A DNA stretch of 43,543 nucleotides, taken from positions 1 through 43,543 of IMG/VR virus record IMGVR_UViG_2541047719_000002; one strand, given 5' to 3'. The stretch comes from a virus. Lineage: Duplodnaviria; Heunggongvirae; Uroviricota; Caudoviricetes. A program made the position numbers and the translations under genes. Under the pieces are notes generated by a model, which did not search any database, was not told the origin of the DNA, and saw only the letters and a list, made by a program, of their open reading frames with translations. Shown one piece after another: positions 1 through 21,204 of the stretch (position 1 is the stretch's first letter; the number at the start of each line of letters is the position of its first letter).

Positions 1-1284
1 CTACTTCTTCGCCTCTGCAACCACTTTGCTACCCACGCCGCGGTTATTGTATTCCCACATGCGGTTGTAGTTAGTGTCATTCAGATTGCGCTGTACTTCG
101 TCGTTATCATCAACGCTGCCGGTGTTACCCGCAAATGGACGATTAGAGATCACCGCATCAGCCCACGGTTTGGCTGTGTTAAAACCTTCGTTGATGGCGC
201 TATCACGGATCACTACCTGACCGTTGGTATTGGCATCAACATCCAGCGAGCGGCCCAGTTGCGCCACGCCATCACCGGAAGCATTGAAACGGCTGTTTAC
301 GGCGAGGAAACCGTAGTAAATGTTGGACAGCGTAGCCGGTGCAAACACATACGCTTCTTGCTGGGTACGGGAGTTCACCACGCGGAATTCGGTGTTATCG
401 AACACCACTGCGCCGCGACCAGAAACGATATCCACATCCCCTTCAATATAGCTGTTGGTCACCAGCGTACGCGGCTGACGATTCGTTTCCAGACGGTTCT
501 GCACACCGCTGTTGGTGACAAAGAAGGTGTTCTGACGACCGAGAATGTTGACGTTATTGATCTGCACTTTGTCGCCATCAGTACGCAGTGCCACCGCCGG
601 ATGGTTACCCGCATCTACGCTATCGCCCAGCGTGTTTTCGATGGTCAGGTTTTGCAGTTGCAGGCCATTGTTTTGTGACCAGAAGACCGCAGAGCAGAGA
701 ACACCGATACTGTCGCTGCGTTTACTCTGGCAGCTATCGTACATATACCACGCCGGTTTACCTGGCATATATTTGCCGCGCGGGTTGACGTCGTGACGCC
801 AGTCGGCAGGGCTCATGCCACCATCAAGGGAAAGCCCAATCTTCACATCAATCGGTTTTTCACCTGTACCGTATAGAGTAATTCCACCCGGAGCGGCAGG
901 GACATACACCGTTCCCTGATACTCACCAGGCATCACGGCAATATACTGGCGCTTGTTGGTACGCTTGATAATTGCCGCATCTACCGCCGCCTGAATCGTG
1001 GTATGCGTTACACCTTGAGTACCCGCCGGGCCGACAACAAAGTCAGGTTGCGCAGGCAGGGTAATCGGGGAAGGATTCCACGCTGCCGCACCTGGTGTCA
1101 GGGATGCAAAATAGTGTTGAGCATCGAAATTCTGCGCTTCTTTTGCCGACAGAATCGGGCGAGAAGAGGTACCAGGCGCGGTTTGATCAGAAGGACGTTG
1201 ATCGGGCGGTGTTGAGCTACAGGCGGTCAGCGTCACGCCAAAAGCCAATGTCAGCGCCAGACGGGAAACTGAAAATGTGTTCAC
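1..1284 (-). CDS. ybhC: YbhC, pectinesterase-like outer-membrane lipoprotein (host gene flanking attB-lambda)
   Basis: 427-aa ORF with signal peptide and lipobox (LTACSS), recalled as E. coli YbhC; GTG start at 1282-1284; ends immediately left of the att core. Confidence 0.85.
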   Translation of the reverse strand: MNTFSVSRLALTLAFGVTLTACSSTPPDQRPSDQTAPGTSSRPILSAKEAQNFDAQHYFASLTPGAAAWNPSPITLPAQPDFVVGPAGTQGVTHTTIQAAVDAAIIKRTNKRQYIAVMPGEYQGTVYVPAAPGGITLYGTGEKPIDVKIGLSLDGGMSPADWRHDVNPRGKYMPGKPAWYMYDSCQSKRSDSIGVLCSAVFWSQNNGLQLQNLTIENTLGDSVDAGNHPAVALRTDGDKVQINNVNILGRQNTFFVTNSGVQNRLETNRQPRTLVTNSYIEGDVDIVSGRGAVVFDNTEFRVVNSRTQQEAYVFAPATLSNIYYGFLAVNSRFNASGDGVAQLGRSLDVDANTNGQVVIRDSAINEGFNTAKPWADAVISNRPFAGNTGSVDDNDEVQRNLNDTNYNRMWEYNNRGVGSKVVAEAKK

Positions 1285-5680: not shown

Positions 5681-5981
5681 TGGTTGCCTCCTTTGCTGGG
5701 CCTTCTAACTTCTGAGTGGTTGTATCAAACTCAAACAACTTAACCACGTCATCAAACAGGACATAATCGCCATCAGAATCTTCAGTCATGTCAGCGCCAC
5801 AATCCTGACCGCACGAGTCGCAACCTCCCATATCAAGCTCGTATCGCTTCAGGTTTGCGATATTTGATAAATTCAGCGCCAGTACAGCCAGGTCATAAAC
5901 CTCTTCGGCAGTGACATCGCTGTTCAGTCCCATTTCATGGCGATATATGATTTTTTCTACTCGTTGTTTTGTGATTGTCAT
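5667..5981 (-). CDS. Hypothetical protein
   Basis: 104-aa ORF, ATG start, acidic Cys-containing segment. Confidence 0.45.
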   Translation of the reverse strand: MTITKQRVEKIIYRHEMGLNSDVTAEEVYDLAVLALNLSNIANLKRYELDMGGCDSCGQDCGADMTEDSDGDYVLFDDVVKLFEFDTTTQKLEGPAKEATSERN

Positions 5982-6523
5982 TTTTGCTCGCCTCCCTGTT
6001 CTTCCAGAAAAATACGCATAGTCTCAAGCATCTCTTCGGTGTCATACGGTGACAACTTGTCACGCAGGATGTGTTCAATGCTGTTAATGAACTTTCGGAT
6101 TGCTTTGCGTTCAATTTCAGTCAGGAAAGCATCGGTGGCTGGGGTGTCTGATTGCATAGACTTTGCGCGATAGTCATTCCACCCTCTTGCATACATGGGA
6201 TTAACTTGCACTCCATCTTTTACGCAATATGCCTGCCCTCCACGGTTGATAACCTTGATTTCGTCCATAGCGCCAGACTTCAGCCCCGCATTCTCCGCCG
6301 CCAGCGCCGAAAACTTCTCGTGTGCCAACTTAACAGCCGCATCAGCCTGCTTAATTGACTCAATCGCTTTCTGGTGGTCTTCGGACAGAGCCGAAATCTT
6401 GGCCTCCGCTTCAGCAAATTTACGCACCAGATATTCAGCGTTTGTTTCGTTAACCTTTAAATCTCGTGGGATGCATTTACCTTTCAGAAATCCATCCATC
6501 TCAATTAGTGACATTTGTTTCAT
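5978..6523 (-). CDS. Hypothetical protein
   Basis: 181-aa ORF, ATG start, 4-nt overlap with neighbour. Confidence 0.5.
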
Positions 6524-6694: not shown

Positions 6695-6991
6695 TCAGTC
6701 ATTACTGATAGCGCCATAGCGTGAGCGGTAATTACGCAGGCGCGGGTCGATATATTCAGGGAAGTGGGTATATGTGGCTTTGCGGAATGGTCGGATTGAT
6801 GTCTGGTAAATTCGCTCGCGTTCTTCTTTCTCTGCAAGCCATATACAGTGGCGAAATTCCTTTTCCTCTTTCGTTTCCTGCGGTAGCGACATTATCCGGT
6901 TGTAGTTTTTCCTGAATTTATCCAGCACCTCCGATACGGAATTGCCGGAACAGCGGCGCGCGTCATCCGCACCATACAGAGGCGCTGGCAT
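6695..6991 (-). CDS. Hypothetical protein
   Basis: 98-aa ORF, ATG start. Confidence 0.45.
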
Positions 6992-8219: not shown

Positions 8220-8744
8220 AATTCACCTCAGAATGGACACGGCCCAAGGAAATAACGCTGATTTAATACTTCGACTCGGGACAAATTAAGGCATACCCGC
8301 ATTCCTTGGCGGTCACCATTATGGCGATACCAGAGAGCTTTCTGCGTGTACATGCGTCTCTGTAACTTGCTCTCCTTCACTGTGGTTGCAAGTGACATGA
8401 ATATCTCCTTCGTTACCGATTAAATCTTTCATCTGACGAATGAATTCTTCGTCTGACCAGTTATCTGTAAAACTCATTTCCTGCGATACCACGGAAGGTT
8501 GATAGCTGATTTCATCGCTTTATTTGCTTCAAGCCACATTTTTGAATCACCAATAAATCTGGCTATTACTGCTTTGTTCTGTGCAGCACGAAGCATCTGG
8601 TGATTAATGGCTATTTCATTGCGCATAACGCCTCCAGTTGTTTCTTTGCTGCTCTGATTAATTGTTTAACTCGGCGTGATAATTCAGATTCGTGCGGGTA
8701 GAAAGCGGACATGACGCCGCTACCCGCTAAAATATATTCATTCA

Positions 8745-9257
8745 TTATTTGCTCCTGTAGAATTCGCCGTGATGCTTTCTGGCAAAGTCGCAGTAAGCTT
8801 TTTTGGCATCTTCTAATTCATTAAAGTACCCTAGATGTTTTTTCTTTCCGTTTAATTTACCATAGGCAGCCCACTTTCTACTTTCCTTCTTCCATGTGAC
8901 TCCTTTGCAACCTGATTTGTTGAGGGTGTTTATTTTACTATTCATTGAATTCTGTGAGTAAGTTGCAAGCCTCAGATTGCAAATTCTGTTATCTGTCTTA
9001 ATGCCATTTATATGGTCGATAATACCTTCAGGCTCAACACCGAAAGTGATAATCCATGCAAGTCTATGTGCAGCATAGTGTCTTCCGTTAATGAAAATCC
9101 TTAAGTAGCCGCTTGTTGTTATTGTTCCGGCAGTTCCACCTATCTTCCTTGCTCCATAAGATTTTAGCCATGTGAACTCACCAGAAATAGGGTTATATTT
9201 GACAACATTATTAATCTCACTTAGGGAAATTAATTCAAGAATCTTTATAAATGCCAT
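8745..9257 (-). CDS. HNH homing endonuclease with AP2-like DNA-binding domain (copy 1)
   Basis: HNH_3-type motif (HRLAW...IDHINGIKTDNRICNLR) plus C-terminal AP2-like segment (GVTW...KWAAYGK...LGYF); start set at ATG 9255-9257; AT-rich gene. Confidence 0.8.
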   Translation of the reverse strand: MAFIKILELISLSEINNVVKYNPISGEFTWLKSYGARKIGGTAGTITTSGYLRIFINGRHYAAHRLAWIITFGVEPEGIIDHINGIKTDNRICNLRLATYSQNSMNSKINTLNKSGCKGVTWKKESRKWAAYGKLNGKKKHLGYFNELEDAKKAYCDFARKHHGEFYRSK

Positions 9258-9341
9258 TTTATATCCTATCAACTGCGTTCATTAATCAGCGTTTACGCTC
9301 ATGAATAAACACCTCTCGTGAAGCGTTATTGGTATGCATAT

Positions 9342-10057: not shown

Positions 10058-10204
10058 TTACCTCGCTGTCAGTTGTTTTGATTTCCGGTAGCCTGCCGAG
10101 TAAATGGCTACGTTTGGCAGGCACACAGCACCACCTTCAACTTCCTTCTAACGCGTTCCTGCAAGCGAAATGGCTCTTGAAACACGTTTACTGGCTCCGT
10201 CCAT
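10058..10204 (-). pseudogene. C-terminal remnant of an N-type (P22 gene 24-like) antiterminator gene, with in-frame TAG
   Basis: Minus-strand translation ...DGASKRVSRAISLAGTR-TAG-KEVEGGAVCLPNVAIYSAGYRKSKQLTAR-TAA matches my recollection of the P22 gp24 C-terminus (KAISLAGTRQKEVEGGSVLLPGVALYAAGHRKSKQITAR); TAG at 10148-10150 sits where P22 has Gln; 5' end overlaps the 3' end of HNH copy 2. Confidence 0.45.
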
Positions 10205-10721
10205 GATTTTCATGAAAGCCATATAGTGCATTGGCTTCTTTCCTTGCTTGTTTGGCATCATCTAAAAGTTTGAATGAGCCTAGGTATTTTCGTTTTCCAT
10301 CCACAGTTATCGATGCAACATAAAACCCATGCTCTTTTCTTTCTTCAACACCTGTAACTCCAGTTGATGAAGATGATTTTAAAGGCATGTTTTTCATATT
10401 CTCTTTGAAAGAAACGCTTCTTAAATTGGAGATTCTGTTGTCATCCTTAACGCCGTTTATGTGATCAATCACATCAGGCCAGTAGCCATGCACGTAAAGC
10501 CATGCAAGTCTGTGAGACTTAAATTTTTTACCTCCAATATTTATTCTCAGATAACCCTTGTTGTCAGGTGAGCCAGCCTTTTTACCTGGATACTTCTTGT
10601 TCCACGTCAAGGCAGCTCTGTTATCCGCAAACAAATGCTTTGCTCTCGGCTTCCAATAAAAGTCACCACTCACAGGATTGTAATGAAGAATCTCCCTTAC
10701 AGACACTTGAGTAAGATCCAC
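10188..10721 (-). CDS. HNH homing endonuclease with AP2-like domain (copy 2)
   Basis: 177-aa ORF, GTG start with AGGAGG RBS; HNH_3 motif (HRLAWLYVHGYWPDVIDHINGVKDDNRISNLR) and AP2-like C-terminus (GVTGV...LGSF...ALYGFHENHGRSQ). Confidence 0.8.
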   Translation of the reverse strand: MDLTQVSVREILHYNPVSGDFYWKPRAKHLFADNRAALTWNKKYPGKKAGSPDNKGYLRINIGGKKFKSHRLAWLYVHGYWPDVIDHINGVKDDNRISNLRSVSFKENMKNMPLKSSSSTGVTGVEERKEHGFYVASITVDGKRKYLGSFKLLDDAKQARKEANALYGFHENHGRSQ

Positions 10722-18479: not shown

Positions 18480-18664
18480 ACGCCACAATTCAAACAATAC
18501 CAGAGCTACTTATCCAGACACGAGGCAATCAGACCGAAGTGGCGAGGATGCTTTCCTGCGCAAGAGGAACAGTGCTCAAGTACAACCGAGACAGCAAAGG
18601 CGAGCGTCACGTAATAGTTAACGGCGTCCTGATGGTCAAACAGGGCAAGAGGGGAAGACCATGA
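18476..18664 (+). CDS. ninH: NinH-like protein
   Basis: 62-aa ORF similar to recalled lambda NinH (…GNQTEVARMLSCARGTVLKY…). Confidence 0.75.
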   Translation: MNATIQTIPELLIQTRGNQTEVARMLSCARGTVLKYNRDSKGERHVIVNGVLMVKQGKRGRP

Positions 18665-19284
18665 GACTCGAAAGCGTAGCTAAATTTCACTCGCCAAAAA
18701 GCCCGATGATGAGCGACTCACCACGGGCTACGGCTTCTGACTCTCTTTCCGGTACTGATGTGATGGCTGCTATGGGGATGGCGCAATCACAAGCCGGATT
18801 CGGAATGGCTGCATTCTGCGGTAAGCATGAACTCAGCCAGAACGACAAACAAAAGGCTATCAACTACCTGATGCAATTTGCACACAAGGTATCGGGGAAA
18901 TACCGTGGCGTGGCAAAGCTTGAAGGAAATACTAAGGCAAAGGTACTGCAAGTGCTCGCAACATTCGCTTATGCGGATTATTGCCGTAGTGCCGCGACGC
19001 CGGGCGCAAGATGCAGAGATTGCCACGGTACAGGCCGTGCGGTTGATATAGCAAAAACAGAGCAGTGGGGGAGAGTTGTTGAGAAAGAGTGCGGAAGATG
19101 CAAAGGTGTCGGCTATTCAAGAATGCCAGCAAGCGCCGCATATCGCGCTGTAACGATGCTAATCCCAAACCTTACCCAACCCACCTGGTCACGAACTGTT
19201 AAGCCGCTGTATGACGCTCTGGTGGTGCAATGCCACAAGGAAGAGTCAATCGCAGACAACATTTTGAACGCGGTCACACGTTAG
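18661..19284 (+). CDS. Q: Late-gene antiterminator Q (lambda Q)
   Basis: 207-aa ORF recalled as essentially identical to lambda Q (MRLESVAKFHSPKSPMMSDSPRATASDSLSGTDVMAAMGMAQSQ...). Confidence 0.95.
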   Translation: MRLESVAKFHSPKSPMMSDSPRATASDSLSGTDVMAAMGMAQSQAGFGMAAFCGKHELSQNDKQKAINYLMQFAHKVSGKYRGVAKLEGNTKAKVLQVLATFAYADYCRSAATPGARCRDCHGTGRAVDIAKTEQWGRVVEKECGRCKGVGYSRMPASAAYRAVTMLIPNLTQPTWSRTVKPLYDALVVQCHKEESIADNILNAVTR

Positions 19285-19326
19285 CAGCATGATTGCCACG
19301 GATGGCAACATATTAACGGCATGATA

Positions 19327-19355
19327 TTGACTTTTTGAATAAAGTTGGGTAAATT
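19327..19355 (+). promoter_or_regulatory. Late promoter PR' (TTGACT -35, TAAATT -10) with overlapping qut site
   Basis: TTGACT at 19327-19332, 17-bp spacer, TAAATT at 19350-19355; sequence matches recalled lambda PR' region. Confidence 0.7.
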
Positions 19356-19498
19356 TGACCCAACGATGGGTTAATTCGCTCGTTGTGGTAGTGAGATAAA
19401 AAGAGGCGGCGCTTACTACCGATTCTGCCTAGTTGGTCACTTCGACGTATCGTCTGGAACTCCAACCATCGCAGGCTGAGAGGTCTGCAAAATGCAAT

Positions 19499-19554
19499 CC
19501 CGAAACAGTTCGCAGGTAATAGTTAGAGCCTGCACAACGGTTTCGGGATTTTTT
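19499..19554 (+). terminator. tR' intrinsic terminator (3' end of the short 6S late leader transcript)
   Basis: Stem CCCGAAAC...GGTTTCGGG followed by TTTTTT (19549-19554); matches recalled lambda tR'. Confidence 0.7.
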
Positions 19555-19558
19555 ATTT

Positions 19559-19633
19559 GGGTCAGTCGTATAAAGGTAATCACGGAAGGCTGTTAACCTT
19601 CTTATCGTGGTTCGAGTCCACGCTGTCCCGCCA
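19559..19633 (+). tRNA. tRNA-Asn-like (anticodon GUU), atypical, possibly degenerate
   Basis: Anticodon stem GAAGG/CCTTC with loop CTGTTAA; T-arm CGTGG-TTCGAGT-CCACG; discriminator G and encoded CCA; acceptor stem 6/7 with a U-U mismatch; D-arm pairs poorly. Confidence 0.45.
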
Positions 19634-19638
19634 AACAT

Positions 19639-19714
19639 GCTGGTTTAGCTCCAATGGTAGAGCAGTCGCCTTGTAAGCGAATGGGTAGCGGTTCAAGTCC
19701 GTTAACCAGCACCA
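19639..19714 (+). tRNA. tRNA-Thr (anticodon UGU)
   Basis: 76-nt cloverleaf folded by hand: perfect 7-bp acceptor stem GCTGGTT/AACCAGC, D-arm GCTC-CAATGGTA-GAGC, anticodon loop CTTGTAA, T-arm AGCGG-TTCAAGT-CCGTT, encoded CCA. Confidence 0.75.
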
Positions 19715-19956
19715 TAACTGAGCCGTAGCCACTGGCTATCCTGAATTCATCAGTGATAGTTATGCTGCGGCCTTCTACACATGATCTTCGTGAAAGCGGG
19801 TGGCAAGAGGTCGCGCTAACAACCTCCTGCCGTTTTGCCCGTGCATATCGGTCACGAACAAATCTGATTACTAAACACAGTAGCCTGGATTTGTTCTATC
19901 AGTAATCGACCTTATTCCTAATTAAATAGAGCAAATCCCCTTATTGGGGGTAAGAC

Positions 19957-20280
19957 ATGAAGATGCCAGAAAAACATGACCTGTTAGCCGCCATTCTCGC
20001 GGCAAAGGAACAAGGCATCGGGGCAATCCTTGCGTTTGCAATGGCGTACCTTCGCGGCAGATATAATGGCGGTGCGTTTACAAAAACAGTAATCGACGCA
20101 ACGATGTGCGCCATTATCGCCTGGTTCATTCGTGACCTTCTCGACTTCGCCGGACTAAGTAGCAATCTCGCTTATATAACGAGCGTGTTCATCGGCTACA
20201 TCGGTACTGACTCGATTGGTTCGCTTATCAAACGCTTCGCTGCTAAAAAAGCCGGAGTAGAAGATGGTGGAAATCAATAA
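19957..20280 (+). CDS. S: Holin/antiholin S (lambda S107/S105 dual start)
   Basis: 107-aa ORF starting [22 protein letters not shown]..., recalled as lambda S; Met1 and Met3 dual-start motif present. Confidence 0.95.
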
Positions 20281-20740
20281 TCAACGTAAGGCGTTCCTCG
20301 ATATGCTGGCGTGGTCAGAGGGAACTGATAACGGACGACAGAAAACCAGAAATCATGGTTATGACGTCATTGTTGGCGGAGAGCTATTCACTGATTACTC
20401 CGATCACCCTCGCAAACTTGTCACGCTAAACCCAAAACTCAAATCAACAGCAGCCGGACGTTACCAGCTTCTTTCCCGTTGGTGGGATTCCTATCGTAAG
20501 CAGCTTGGCCTGAAAGACTTCTCTCCGAAAAGCCAGGACGCTGTTGCACTGCAGCAGATTAAGGAGCGTGGCGCTTTGCCGATGATTGATCGCGGTGATA
20601 TTCGTCAGGCTATCGACCGTTGCAGCAATATCTGGGCTTCACTGCCGGGCGCTGGTTATGGTCAGTTCGAGCATAAGGCTGACAGCCTGATTGCAAAATT
20701 CAAAGAAGCGGGCGGAACGGTCAGAGAGATTGAGGTATGA
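20264..20740 (+). CDS. R: Endolysin R (lambda-type lytic transglycosylase)
   Basis: 158-aa ORF recalled as near-identical to lambda R ([39 protein letters not shown]...). Confidence 0.95.
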
Positions 20741-21204
20741 GCAGAGTAACCGCGATTATCTCCGCTCTGGTTATCTGCATCATCGTTTGCCTGTCATGGG
20801 CTGTTAATCATTACCGTGATAACGCCATCGCCTACAAAGAACAGCGTGATAAAAAAGGCAGTGAGCTGAAGCAGGCGACCGCCACCATTACTGACATGCA
20901 GCAGCGCCAGCGGGATGTTGCTGCACTCGATGCAAAATACACGAAGGAGTTAGCTGATGCGCAAGCTGAAAATGATGCTCTTCGGCGTAAGCTTGATAAT
21001 GGTGGTCGGGTGCTCGTCAAAGGAAAATGCCCTGTGCCAGCCTCAGCCAAAACTTCCAGCGCCTCCGGCATGGGCAATGATGCCACCGTCGAACTCTCTT
21101 CAGTTGCTGGACGAAACGTTCTCGGTATCCGGGAAGGAATTATCCGCGACCAAACAGCACTGAGAGCGCTTCAGGAATACATCAGGACGCAATGCCTTCG
21201 ATGA
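20737..21204 (+). CDS. Rz: Inner-membrane spanin Rz
   Basis: 155-aa ORF with N-terminal TM segment and coiled-coil periplasmic domain; contains embedded +1 frame Rz1. Confidence 0.85.
20957..21163 (+). CDS. Rz1: Outer-membrane lipoprotein spanin Rz1 (embedded in Rz, +1 frame)
   Basis: 68-aa ORF with AAGGAG RBS, signal peptide and lipobox (VVGC), Pro-rich mature region. Confidence 0.7.

Follow-up and report, generated by a model that had tools for sequence, protein, structure and literature searches.

A tRNA-Asn–tRNA-Thr cassette directly after the late terminator tR' of a P22-like Escherichia coli prophage and its probable role as a source of nuclease-resistant tRNAs

Analysis with ARAGORN of a 43,543-nucleotide stretch of viral DNA (Caudoviricetes; IMG/VR record IMGVR_UViG_2541047719_000002, positions 1 to 43,543, hereafter the window) reveals just two tRNA genes over all 43.5 kb, each of them on the plus strand. 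They lie side by side in the late leader of a lambdoid prophage, between the terminator tR' and the untranslated region that precedes the lysis genes. The features of this locus, with the evidence for each, are as follows.

18661–19284, plus strand: lambda-type late antiterminator gene Q, 207 amino acids (open reading frame; alignment with lambda; Q in the annotations of homologous records)
19327–19355, plus strand: late promoter PR', with -35 hexamer TTGACT at 19327–19332 and -10 hexamer TAAATT at 19350–19355 (aligns with lambda PR' and with the annotated HK446 promoter)
19496–19558, plus strand: terminator tR' of the 6S leader, with hairpin at 19496–19550 and U-tract UUUUUUAUUU at 19549–19558 (fold and alignment with lambda)
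19559–19633, plus strand: tRNA-Asn, anticodon GUU, 75 nucleotides, encoded CCA, discriminator G (ARAGORN; Rfam RF00005, 49.8 bits, E 7.6e-8)
19634–19638, plus strand: spacer AACAU of 5 nucleotides between the tRNAs, with AAUAU instead in numerous relatives (highest polymorphism within the cassette, nucleotide diversity pi 0.11)
19639–19714, plus strand: tRNA-Thr, anticodon UGU, 76 nucleotides, encoded CCA (ARAGORN; Rfam RF00005, 61.5 bits, E 4.7e-11)
19716–19956, plus strand: untranslated leader up to S, common to lambda, Sf6 and Kapi1 (alignment; taken as the non-coding reference for diversity)
19957–21204, plus strand: lambda-type lysis cassette, S at 19957–20280, R at 20264–20740 and Rz at 20737–21204 (open reading frames; annotated homologues in Sf6, Kapi1 and lambda)

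A preliminary description of this DNA had placed two tRNA-like genes right after tR', in the stead of the lambda sequence, and had proposed a tRNA predictor as a check; ARAGORN calls both genes, Rfam agrees, with scores that chance would not produce (the gathering score of RF00005 is 29), and the placement holds to the base. The anticodon loops, CUGUUAA in tRNA-Asn and CUUGUAA in tRNA-Thr, are both seven nucleotides long with U33 and a purine at position 37; the two T arms, GGTTCGAGTCC and GGTTCAAGTCC, respectively, agree with the T loop consensus GGTTCRANTCC, and GG is present in both D loops. The same description had spoken of an "Asn-like" gene and a "clean" tRNA-Thr, a distinction that is reflected in the Rfam scores and in the structures: the D stem of tRNA-Thr is intact, while the acceptor stem of tRNA-Asn contains a U4.U mismatch and the D stem of this tRNA is weak, comprising three pairs and a U.U in the consensus tRNA-Asn of the family and two Watson-Crick pairs in the window copy (A12.C23). 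In the anticodon arm of tRNA-Asn, CNG is absent from both strands of the stem GAAGG/CCUUC, which carries C39, and in that of tRNA-Thr the stem GUCGC/GCGAA contains a G27.A43 mismatch, a U28-A42 pair and G39. The sequence of tRNA-Asn has G34, U35, U36 and G73, and that of tRNA-Thr has G1-C72, C2-G71, G35 and U36; these positions are identity elements of the E. coli AsnRS and ThrRS, respectively, by which the two tRNAs would be charged.

The surrounding late leader, made up of Q, the PR' hexamers and the tR' hairpin with its U-tract, is co-linear with that of lambda. As already noted in the preliminary description, the match to lambda extends from Q through tR' and resumes at about 19715 into S, with the tRNA interval in between: 870 of 896 bases are identical between the beginning of Q and the U-tract of tR', and 554 of 565 from 19716, just after the CCA of tRNA-Thr, to the S stop. 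Between these two blocks, 159 bp of the window (19557–19715) stand for 163 unrelated bp of lambda (44782–44944). A decayed tRNA inside the replaced lambda block was considered and rejected, as ARAGORN called none there and a permissive Rfam search returned only chance matches (E ~5). The tR' hairpin folds with a free energy of -27.2 kcal/mol (z -5.6; none of 200 shuffled sequences was equally stable), and the U-tract ends one base before G1 of tRNA-Asn. A simple terminator scan does not report tR' on the plus strand because its loop limit is 3–8 nucleotides, and the direct fold was used instead. PR' is the sole sigma-70-like site detected in 19200–20000, between Q and S, and an internal promoter for the tRNAs was rejected on the basis of the same scan. 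Among the protein-coding genes of the late operon, S, R and Rz come first.

The pair of tRNA-Asn(GUU) with tRNA-Thr(UGU) after tR' is an already known and widespread cassette of lambdoid phages. Annotations of this pair in this position exist in GenBank for Sf6 (where a note reads "similar to phage 21"), for phage 21, Kapi1, mEp506, BTP1, vB_SosS_Oslo and others. Comparison of the window with the cassettes of phage 21, Sf6, HK446, Kapi1 and BTP1 shows the same genes in the same order, the same 5-nucleotide spacer and the same start of tRNA-Asn after the tR' U-tract; the 156-bp block is 98.1–98.7% identical and tRNA-Thr 100% identical (76/76 with both the "tRNA-Thr21" of phage 21 and the tRNA-Thr of HK446). 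HK446, Kapi1 and mEp506 also share with the window the lambda-type Q and S flanks (98.3% over 711 bp). The window differs from these phages by two substitutions in the D arm of tRNA-Asn and by the mosaic in which the cassette is embedded (P22-like virion genes, att-lambda, immI with sar). In the case of HK446 (JQ086372.1, 35097–35252), GenBank annotates neither gene and the phage has been described as having a single tRNA (bioRxiv 10.64898/2026.07.10.737580), but ARAGORN calls tRNA-Asn as well as tRNA-Thr, so that HK446 should be credited with two tRNAs, not one.

Of 5,426 complete E. coli genomes, 369 (~7%) contain the 156-bp block, and an exact-pattern scan recovered it from at least 119 IMG/VR contigs and 5 species genomes. 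The cassette pattern also occurs in short contigs binned as Segatella copri and Collinsella metagenome-assembled genomes, which are most likely mis-binned fragments of enterobacterial phages. Among the matches listed, 122 IMG/VR and GTDB loci, the set to which all counts of loci below refer unless stated otherwise, have tRNA-Asn directly after a tR' U-tract ending TTTTTTATTT; at least ~95 of these tR' are of the phage 21 type and at least ~20 of the lambda type. The neighbours of the cassette vary accordingly. Q and tR' are of two types (lambda and phage 21), the holin belongs to two families (lambda S and S21), and the virion module is of three types (P22-like in the window, Sf6 and Kapi1; lambda-like in phage 21; HK97-like in HK446). 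In phage 21 the cassette thus stands with 21-type Q and tR', the S21 pinholin and lambda-like virion genes, and in HK446 with lambda-type Q and an HK97-like virion. It follows from this variety that the cassette acts like a little mobile unit whose attachment is to the late terminator and not to the structural genes.

Sequence diversity was evaluated over 73 loci in which a 21-type tRNA-Thr goes together with an S leader of the lambda type, and gave the following values.

tRNA-Asn, first 50 nucleotides: pi 0.006, 7 segregating sites of 50
tRNA-Thr: pi 0.011, 14 segregating sites of 76
adjacent untranslated leader: pi 0.037, 93 segregating sites of 236

The deficit of segregating sites with respect to the leader (Fisher p 5e-4 for tRNA-Asn and 8e-4 for tRNA-Thr) indicates purifying selection on both tRNAs. 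Compensatory changes are seen in the stems, namely G5-C68 to U-A (5 loci) and A49-U65 to G-C in tRNA-Thr, and A28-U42 to C-G in tRNA-Asn; their small number is explained by the youth and near invariance of the family.

Insight into a possible function of the cassette comes from recent work on P2 OLD, the agent of the classical P2-lambda interference. This nuclease kills by cutting the host tRNA-Thr(UGU) (PMC12445682, NAR 2025), and its cut sites are paired CNG motifs in the anticodon stem of that tRNA (PMC12445682). E. coli K-12 has no other UGU tRNA, and this one is encoded by the single gene thrU. The tRNA-Thr21 of phage 21 protects Old+ Gam+ cells, a rescue for which the UGU anticodon is needed, and the unmodified tRNA-Thr21 transcript withstands P2-OLD, site 1 being almost fully resistant (PMC12445682). 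Introduction of C28U/G42A alone into host thrU gives no protection, and the authors conclude that resistance requires the shortened stem together with the altered CNG motif (PMC12445682). Independent work showed that the Thr(UGU) tRNA of HK446 restores plaquing of the OLD-sensitive phages HK97, HK542 and Bas34 to near wild type (bioRxiv 10.64898/2026.07.10.737580), and host thrU on a plasmid, unlike the phage tRNA-Thr, gives no rescue (PMC12445682; bioRxiv 10.64898/2026.07.10.737580). Positions 28–30 and 40–42 read UCG and CGA in the window tRNA-Thr, as against CUG and CAG in host thrU. Judged by its sequence, the window tRNA-Thr therefore has the features linked to OLD resistance (UGU, G27.A43 and U28-A42). 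Indeed, both the resistance and the rescue were demonstrated by others on a tRNA-Thr of identical sequence; the RNA is the same as tRNA-Thr21 and the HK446 rescue tRNA, and the difference is that its expression from the native late leader is here a prediction.

These observations lead us to propose that the main value of the cassette lies in providing nuclease-resistant substitutes for host tRNAs, rather than extra decoding capacity, a reading to which we assign a probability of roughly 0.68. According to this proposal, PR' would fire constitutively and transcription would halt at tR'; once Q is made, polymerase would pass tR', and the two tRNAs would form the first element of the abundant late transcript. 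Host enzymes would excise them, both with their encoded CCA, and AsnRS and ThrRS would charge them. Where Toprim tRNases of rival mobile elements destroy host tRNA-Thr(UGU), and PARIS AriB also cuts tRNA-Asn(GUU), the shortened anticodon stem (G27.A43) and changed CNG motif (U28-A42) of the phage tRNA-Thr would let it escape OLD, so that ACA codons would remain readable during late protein synthesis. The tRNA-Asn probably acts in the same way, as it has lost the same motifs. Q-dependent expression, processing, charging and any role of tRNA-Asn are the parts of this scheme that we infer.

As far as expression is concerned, Q-dependent transcription is deduced from the position after tR' and from the fact that no other promoter was detected. 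The preliminary description had gone further and stated that the tRNAs would be transcribed only under Q antitermination. Late expression is plausible, PR' being the sole promoter detected and the pair abutting tR' in the listed loci, but "only" is too strong: from the biology of lambda, some leak at tR' and read-through from PR by N-modified polymerase are expected. Published transcriptomes of related lysogens touch on this region. The RNA-seq paper on the BTP1 lysogen excludes the two tRNA genes when it enumerates prophage genes with high expression, their values not being stated, and it has the lytic operon beginning "directly after" them. RNA-seq of the Kapi1 lysogen revealed a clear antisense signal opposite the tRNAs, and its authors cite a similar signal in BTP1 between the tRNAs and the holin gene; on the minus strand of 19559–19956 of the window, no Rfam family gave a match.

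The question arises whether tRNA-Asn takes part in the same function. PARIS AriB depletes host tRNA-Lys(UUU) along with tRNA-Thr(UGU) and, less strongly, tRNA-Asn(GUU), cutting at 40/41 next to U36-A-A-U39 (PMC12409363). The T5 versions of the Lys, Thr and Asn tRNAs are together sufficient for rescue of growth, Lys and Thr being enough at higher induction, and the T5 tRNA-Lys is required against PARIS (PMC12409363). Host thrU and asnT both contain U39 and CNG on both strands, and the cassette tRNAs have neither; around the cut site (marked by a slash), the window reads UAAGC/G in tRNA-Thr and UAACC/U in tRNA-Asn, and the host tRNAs read UAAUC/A and UAAUC/C, respectively. Having C39 and no CNG, tRNA-Asn should escape both OLD and AriB by the published rules. 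Compared with the PARIS-evading set of T5, the window covers two of the three isoacceptors targeted by AriB, whereas T5 includes Lys(UUU); like the T5 variants, the cassette tRNAs have a base other than U at position 39 (G in tRNA-Thr, C in tRNA-Asn) and a nucleotide 41 unlike that of the host. The sequences are, however, only ~63–66% identical to those of the T5 tRNAs, and T5 carries an array of 24 tRNAs whereas the window has a two-gene cassette in the late leader of a temperate phage, for which AriB resistance is a prediction.

On these grounds, we tentatively consider that the pair may constitute a matched two-tRNA counter-defence cassette, in which tRNA-Asn, having lost both the CNG motifs and U39, would also be a nuclease-resistant replacement; we hold this to be somewhat less probable than the contrary. 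With similar reserve, the pair could be seen to cover the prime target of OLD together with the two non-Lys targets of AriB, and its placement after tR' might provide a burst of resistant tRNA exactly during late protein synthesis. It is conceivable too, at about the same level of doubt, that the Asn-Thr pair of P1/P7 and the presence of both isoacceptors in the tRNA cluster of N4-like phages reflect the same pressure. OLD and AriB are carried by P2 prophages and P4-like satellites, which are rivals of lambdoid phages in E. coli. If tRNA-Asn is also resistant, the cassette would counter the tRNA-cutting defences of the P2/P4 family in a compact and mobile form, and it would be a simple marker for prophages, and for therapeutic or temperate phages, able to grow in hosts with OLD or PARIS. 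No published functional test of the cassette tRNA-Asn was found in our literature search, and the link between this tRNA and evasion of OLD or PARIS is not made in the OLD or AriB literature found; temperate and lambdoid phages go unmentioned in the AriB paper (PMC12409363). Finding again a common, annotated feature would add little by itself; the value of the present analysis is that it ties a cassette present in ~7% of E. coli genomes to the exclusion of lambdoid phages by P2 OLD.

Several points weigh against the proposal of nuclease-resistant substitutes. The published rescues used tRNA expressed from plasmids and not from the native late leader (PMC12445682; bioRxiv 10.64898/2026.07.10.737580), and the rescue was partial, with small colonies (PMC12445682). 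A single Thr tRNA rescued neither lambda nor the recB-linked toxicity (bioRxiv 10.64898/2026.07.10.737580), whereas the other study, as far as the title of its Figure 2 goes, holds that phage tRNAs help lambda survive OLD restriction (PMC12445682). HK446 depends mainly on the Oad2 protein to evade OLD, and the authors of that work question whether OLD is what its tRNA is primarily directed against (bioRxiv 10.64898/2026.07.10.737580). Late timing may also follow, rather than precede, activation of the nuclease by trigger genes of the early-left region. As for tRNA-Asn, it is odd and scores low (55.3 bits in Rfam for the consensus, as against 73 bits for host asnT), the window copy contains a change that breaks the D stem, and the loss of U39 and CNG says little when taken alone, because diverged stems often differ from those of the host by chance. 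Moreover, ARAGORN called no tRNA-Lys(UUU), the prime target of AriB, in the whole window, and the cassette alone therefore cannot defeat PARIS of the B185 type. Finally, the prophage is rich in ACA codons and may derive a codon benefit from tRNA-Thr, a point taken up below.

The change in the D stem raises the further possibility that the tRNA-Asn of this prophage is a decaying copy, functioning poorly or not at all, and that only tRNA-Thr is under effective selection. The window block differs from every other copy found by two changes in the D arm of tRNA-Asn, 19578 C>A and 19581 T>C. The latter breaks the A12-U23 pair and occurs in none of the 122 loci, whereas 19578 is a variable D-loop position at which all four bases are met in relatives, A being found in 2 of the 122 loci. 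No identical copy of the variant block was found in 50,697 phage records and 5,426 E. coli genomes searched with BLAST (best match, 98.7%), nor in 185,579 species genomes searched with an exact 34-nucleotide pattern, so that the variant looks private. Its effect is to lower the Rfam score from 55.3 bits in the consensus to 49.8 bits and to weaken the cloverleaf from -19.1 to -16.7 kcal/mol, a competing fold being strengthened from -21.6 to -24.2 kcal/mol. In the prophage of E. coli K56-43-un (NZ_CP053079.1, 3383905–3384120), the GG of the D loop of tRNA-Asn has suffered a 1-nucleotide deletion (AAAGGT to AAAGT), and PGAP annotates tRNA-Thr alone; a few other loci have 1-nucleotide deletions or a change of U33 in tRNA-Asn. 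Taken together, the K56-43-un deletion and the D-stem change of the window suggest that tRNA-Asn may be dispensable and decaying in some lineages. On the other hand, the window tRNA-Asn is still called by ARAGORN and by Rfam, well over the threshold, and an A.C mismatch in the D stem is tolerable. The energy models omit tertiary contacts and base modifications, and minimum-energy folding is unreliable as a measure of tRNA integrity, since host thrU and asnT do not fold as minimum-energy cloverleaves either; for this reason, the energy of the explicit cloverleaf was used. Across the population, tRNA-Asn is less polymorphic than tRNA-Thr. The T>C change at 19581 may represent real decay or a sequencing error. 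Considering both sides, we regard a decaying copy of this kind, functioning poorly or not at all, as rather unlikely.

The preliminary description had interpreted the two tRNAs in terms of codon supplementation for virion or moron genes, i.e. the tRNAs would add decoding of ACA and AAC/AAU and speed up late protein synthesis whether or not a defence system is present. The prophage indeed uses ACA at 17.0 per 1000 codons, against 5.4 in a sample of 42 K-12 genes (31% vs 10% of Thr codons, 3.2-fold, p ~1e-19), and ACA in K-12 is read solely by tRNA-Thr(UGU) from the single gene thrU (PMC12445682). In late genes, ACA reaches 18.1 per 1000 in the window and 8.1 per 1000 in lambda (p 1e-6). The enrichment is not specific to late genes, however, as the share of ACA among Thr codons is 0.32 in late genes and 0.30–0.32 in the early-left and early-right genes (p > 0.3). 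Moreover, Asn codons are merely 1.2-fold enriched over the K-12 sample; E. coli has four tRNA-Asn genes, and codon demand leaves the Asn partner unexplained. It also fails to explain the loss of nuclease motifs in both tRNAs and the failure of plasmid-borne host thrU to rescue. Codon usage in the late genes was compared over a panel of five phages only, in the order of their ACA share of Thr codons:

this window, with the cassette: ACA 0.32, Asn codons 48.5 per 1000
P22, without any tRNA and hence without the cassette: ACA 0.22, Asn codons 53.1 per 1000
phage 21, with the cassette: ACA 0.15, Asn codons 35.2 per 1000
HK446, with the cassette: ACA 0.15, Asn codons 49.7 per 1000
lambda, without the cassette: ACA 0.12, Asn codons 36.0 per 1000

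Within this panel, phage 21 and lambda do not differ significantly in late-gene ACA (p = 0.26), and the usage values show that the presence of the cassette does not track late-gene codon demand. What stands of the earlier interpretation is the enrichment, about 3-fold for ACA and 1.2-fold for Asn codons with respect to the host sample; being neither late-specific nor correlated with the cassette, it does not designate codon supply as the main purpose, and no link to moron genes was found. Codon supplementation can coexist with a defence function, as richness in ACA also raises the sensitivity to loss of thrU, but as the explanation of the cassette it appears improbable to us. Still less credible, to the point that we give it almost no weight, is compensation at the integration site, in which a phage tRNA replaces a host tRNA gene disrupted on integration. 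This was proposed for HK446 by the authors of the OLD preprint (bioRxiv 10.64898/2026.07.10.737580), and the attP of HK446 lies in thrW. The idea does not fit the cassette: the window prophage lies between ybhC and ybhB, at the lambda attB, rather than inside a tRNA gene; the insertion site of Kapi1 is argW, which the phage regenerates; thrW encodes Thr(CGU), another isoacceptor than UGU; and tRNA-Asn is left without explanation. In every locus examined among the matches listed, the cassette is linked to tR' and not to int or att.

The window element itself is a mosaic P22-like E. coli prophage at att-lambda. Its flanks are E. coli ybhC (1–1284, minus strand) and ybhB (41828–42304, minus strand), which define the lambda attB locus, and ybhB is followed by a gene of the TnpB/InsQ family (42413–43543, plus strand). 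The nearest overall relatives are Kapi1, CUS-3 and HK97-type early regions. A sar antisense RNA (38357–38423, minus strand; Rfam 71.6 bits) and the beginning of an ant-like open reading frame (38359–39303) overlap, and the two mark a P22-type immI region. The late lysis genes S, R and Rz, as well as the antiterminator gene Q, are of the lambda type, and the early-left operon includes Erf, SSB and Abc2. A related prophage is present at the same att site in E. coli K56-43-un. Three genes of this early-left operon, all in the leftward orientation, have homologues or functions connected with OLD or RecBCD:

8319–8492, minus strand: homologue of HK446/HK75 gp33 (tblastn, 86.5% identity over 52 amino acids, E 1.4e-28)
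6695–6991, minus strand: anti-RecBCD protein Abc2 (phrog_656 "abc2 anti-RecBCD", E 8.9e-56, full length)
5978–6523, minus strand: distant relative of Oad2, the OLD inhibitor HK446 gp27 of the EaE family (tblastn, 39% identity over 190 amino acids, E 1.9e-35)

HK446 gp33 is a published trigger of P2 OLD (bioRxiv 10.64898/2026.07.10.737580), and with a gp33 homologue (86.5%) and Abc2 the prophage would be expected to provoke systems of the OLD type. No Gam homologue was found among the prophage genes. The protein related to Oad2 is 39% identical to that of HK446, and its relationship is deduced from sequence similarity. The early-left region also contains two paralogous HNH endonuclease genes (8745–9272 and 10188–10721, both on the minus strand; phrog_99, E ~1e-66 to 1e-68).

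Comparable tRNA genes are found in several other phages. In P1/P7, trnA and trnT are adjacent genes, one for tRNA-Asn(GUU) and one for tRNA-Thr(UGU), with a short spacer, expressed during lytic growth only, under the C1 operator Op(ban). Their setting and promoter control differ from those of the window cassette, and the P1-type tRNA-Asn is identical to the window tRNA-Asn at 45 of 76 positions, so that the two are unrelated in detail. Phage Cyrano, considered as a T5-like link to PARIS, was rejected, its pair being of the P1/P7 type (92–93% identity). N4-like phages carry tRNAs for Asn, Ser, Thr and Pro(UGG), and their tRNA-Thr is identical to that of the window at 67 of 76 positions. In Stx-converting lambdoid phages, tRNAs are likewise located in the late leader after Q, the isoacceptor sets being different; ileZ, argN and argO of 933W are the classical tRNAs downstream of Q and PR'. 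Phage JLK-2012 has the same tRNA-Asn as the cassette, followed by a Thr-like gene, tRNA-Gly(UCC) and tciA/tciB; Gly(UCC) is another reported target of OLD (bioRxiv 10.64898/2026.07.10.737580). The tRNA sets of P1/P7, N4-like phages and JLK-2012 suggest a shared pressure.

Two variants of the second gene deserve a description. In JLK-2012 (locus L006, 1581–1734) and in 10 of the 122 IMG/VR and GTDB loci, its 5' part resembles the phage tRNA-Thr and its 3' part is close to host thrU, to which it is identical in one locus; the Thr-like gene of JLK-2012 is not called by ARAGORN. From its sequence, this gene looks like a recombinant between phage and host. In the P22-like Salmonella phages L (locus L005, 1581–1652), ST64T, PS3 and ST-87, tRNA-Asn is identical but the second gene has lost its anticodon region through a 4-nucleotide deletion. 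This gene bears the annotation of a 72-nucleotide "tRNA-Leu(TAA)", obtains 42 bits in Rfam and no call by ARAGORN, and may be a decayed or repurposed tRNA-Thr.

In P7/P1 (P7: locus L008, 2374–2972) as in JLK-2012 (locus L006, 1903–2495), terB/tciA and tciB, annotated as "tellurite or colicin resistance", come after the Asn-Thr pair. The recurrence of these genes after the pair hints at a larger shared module.

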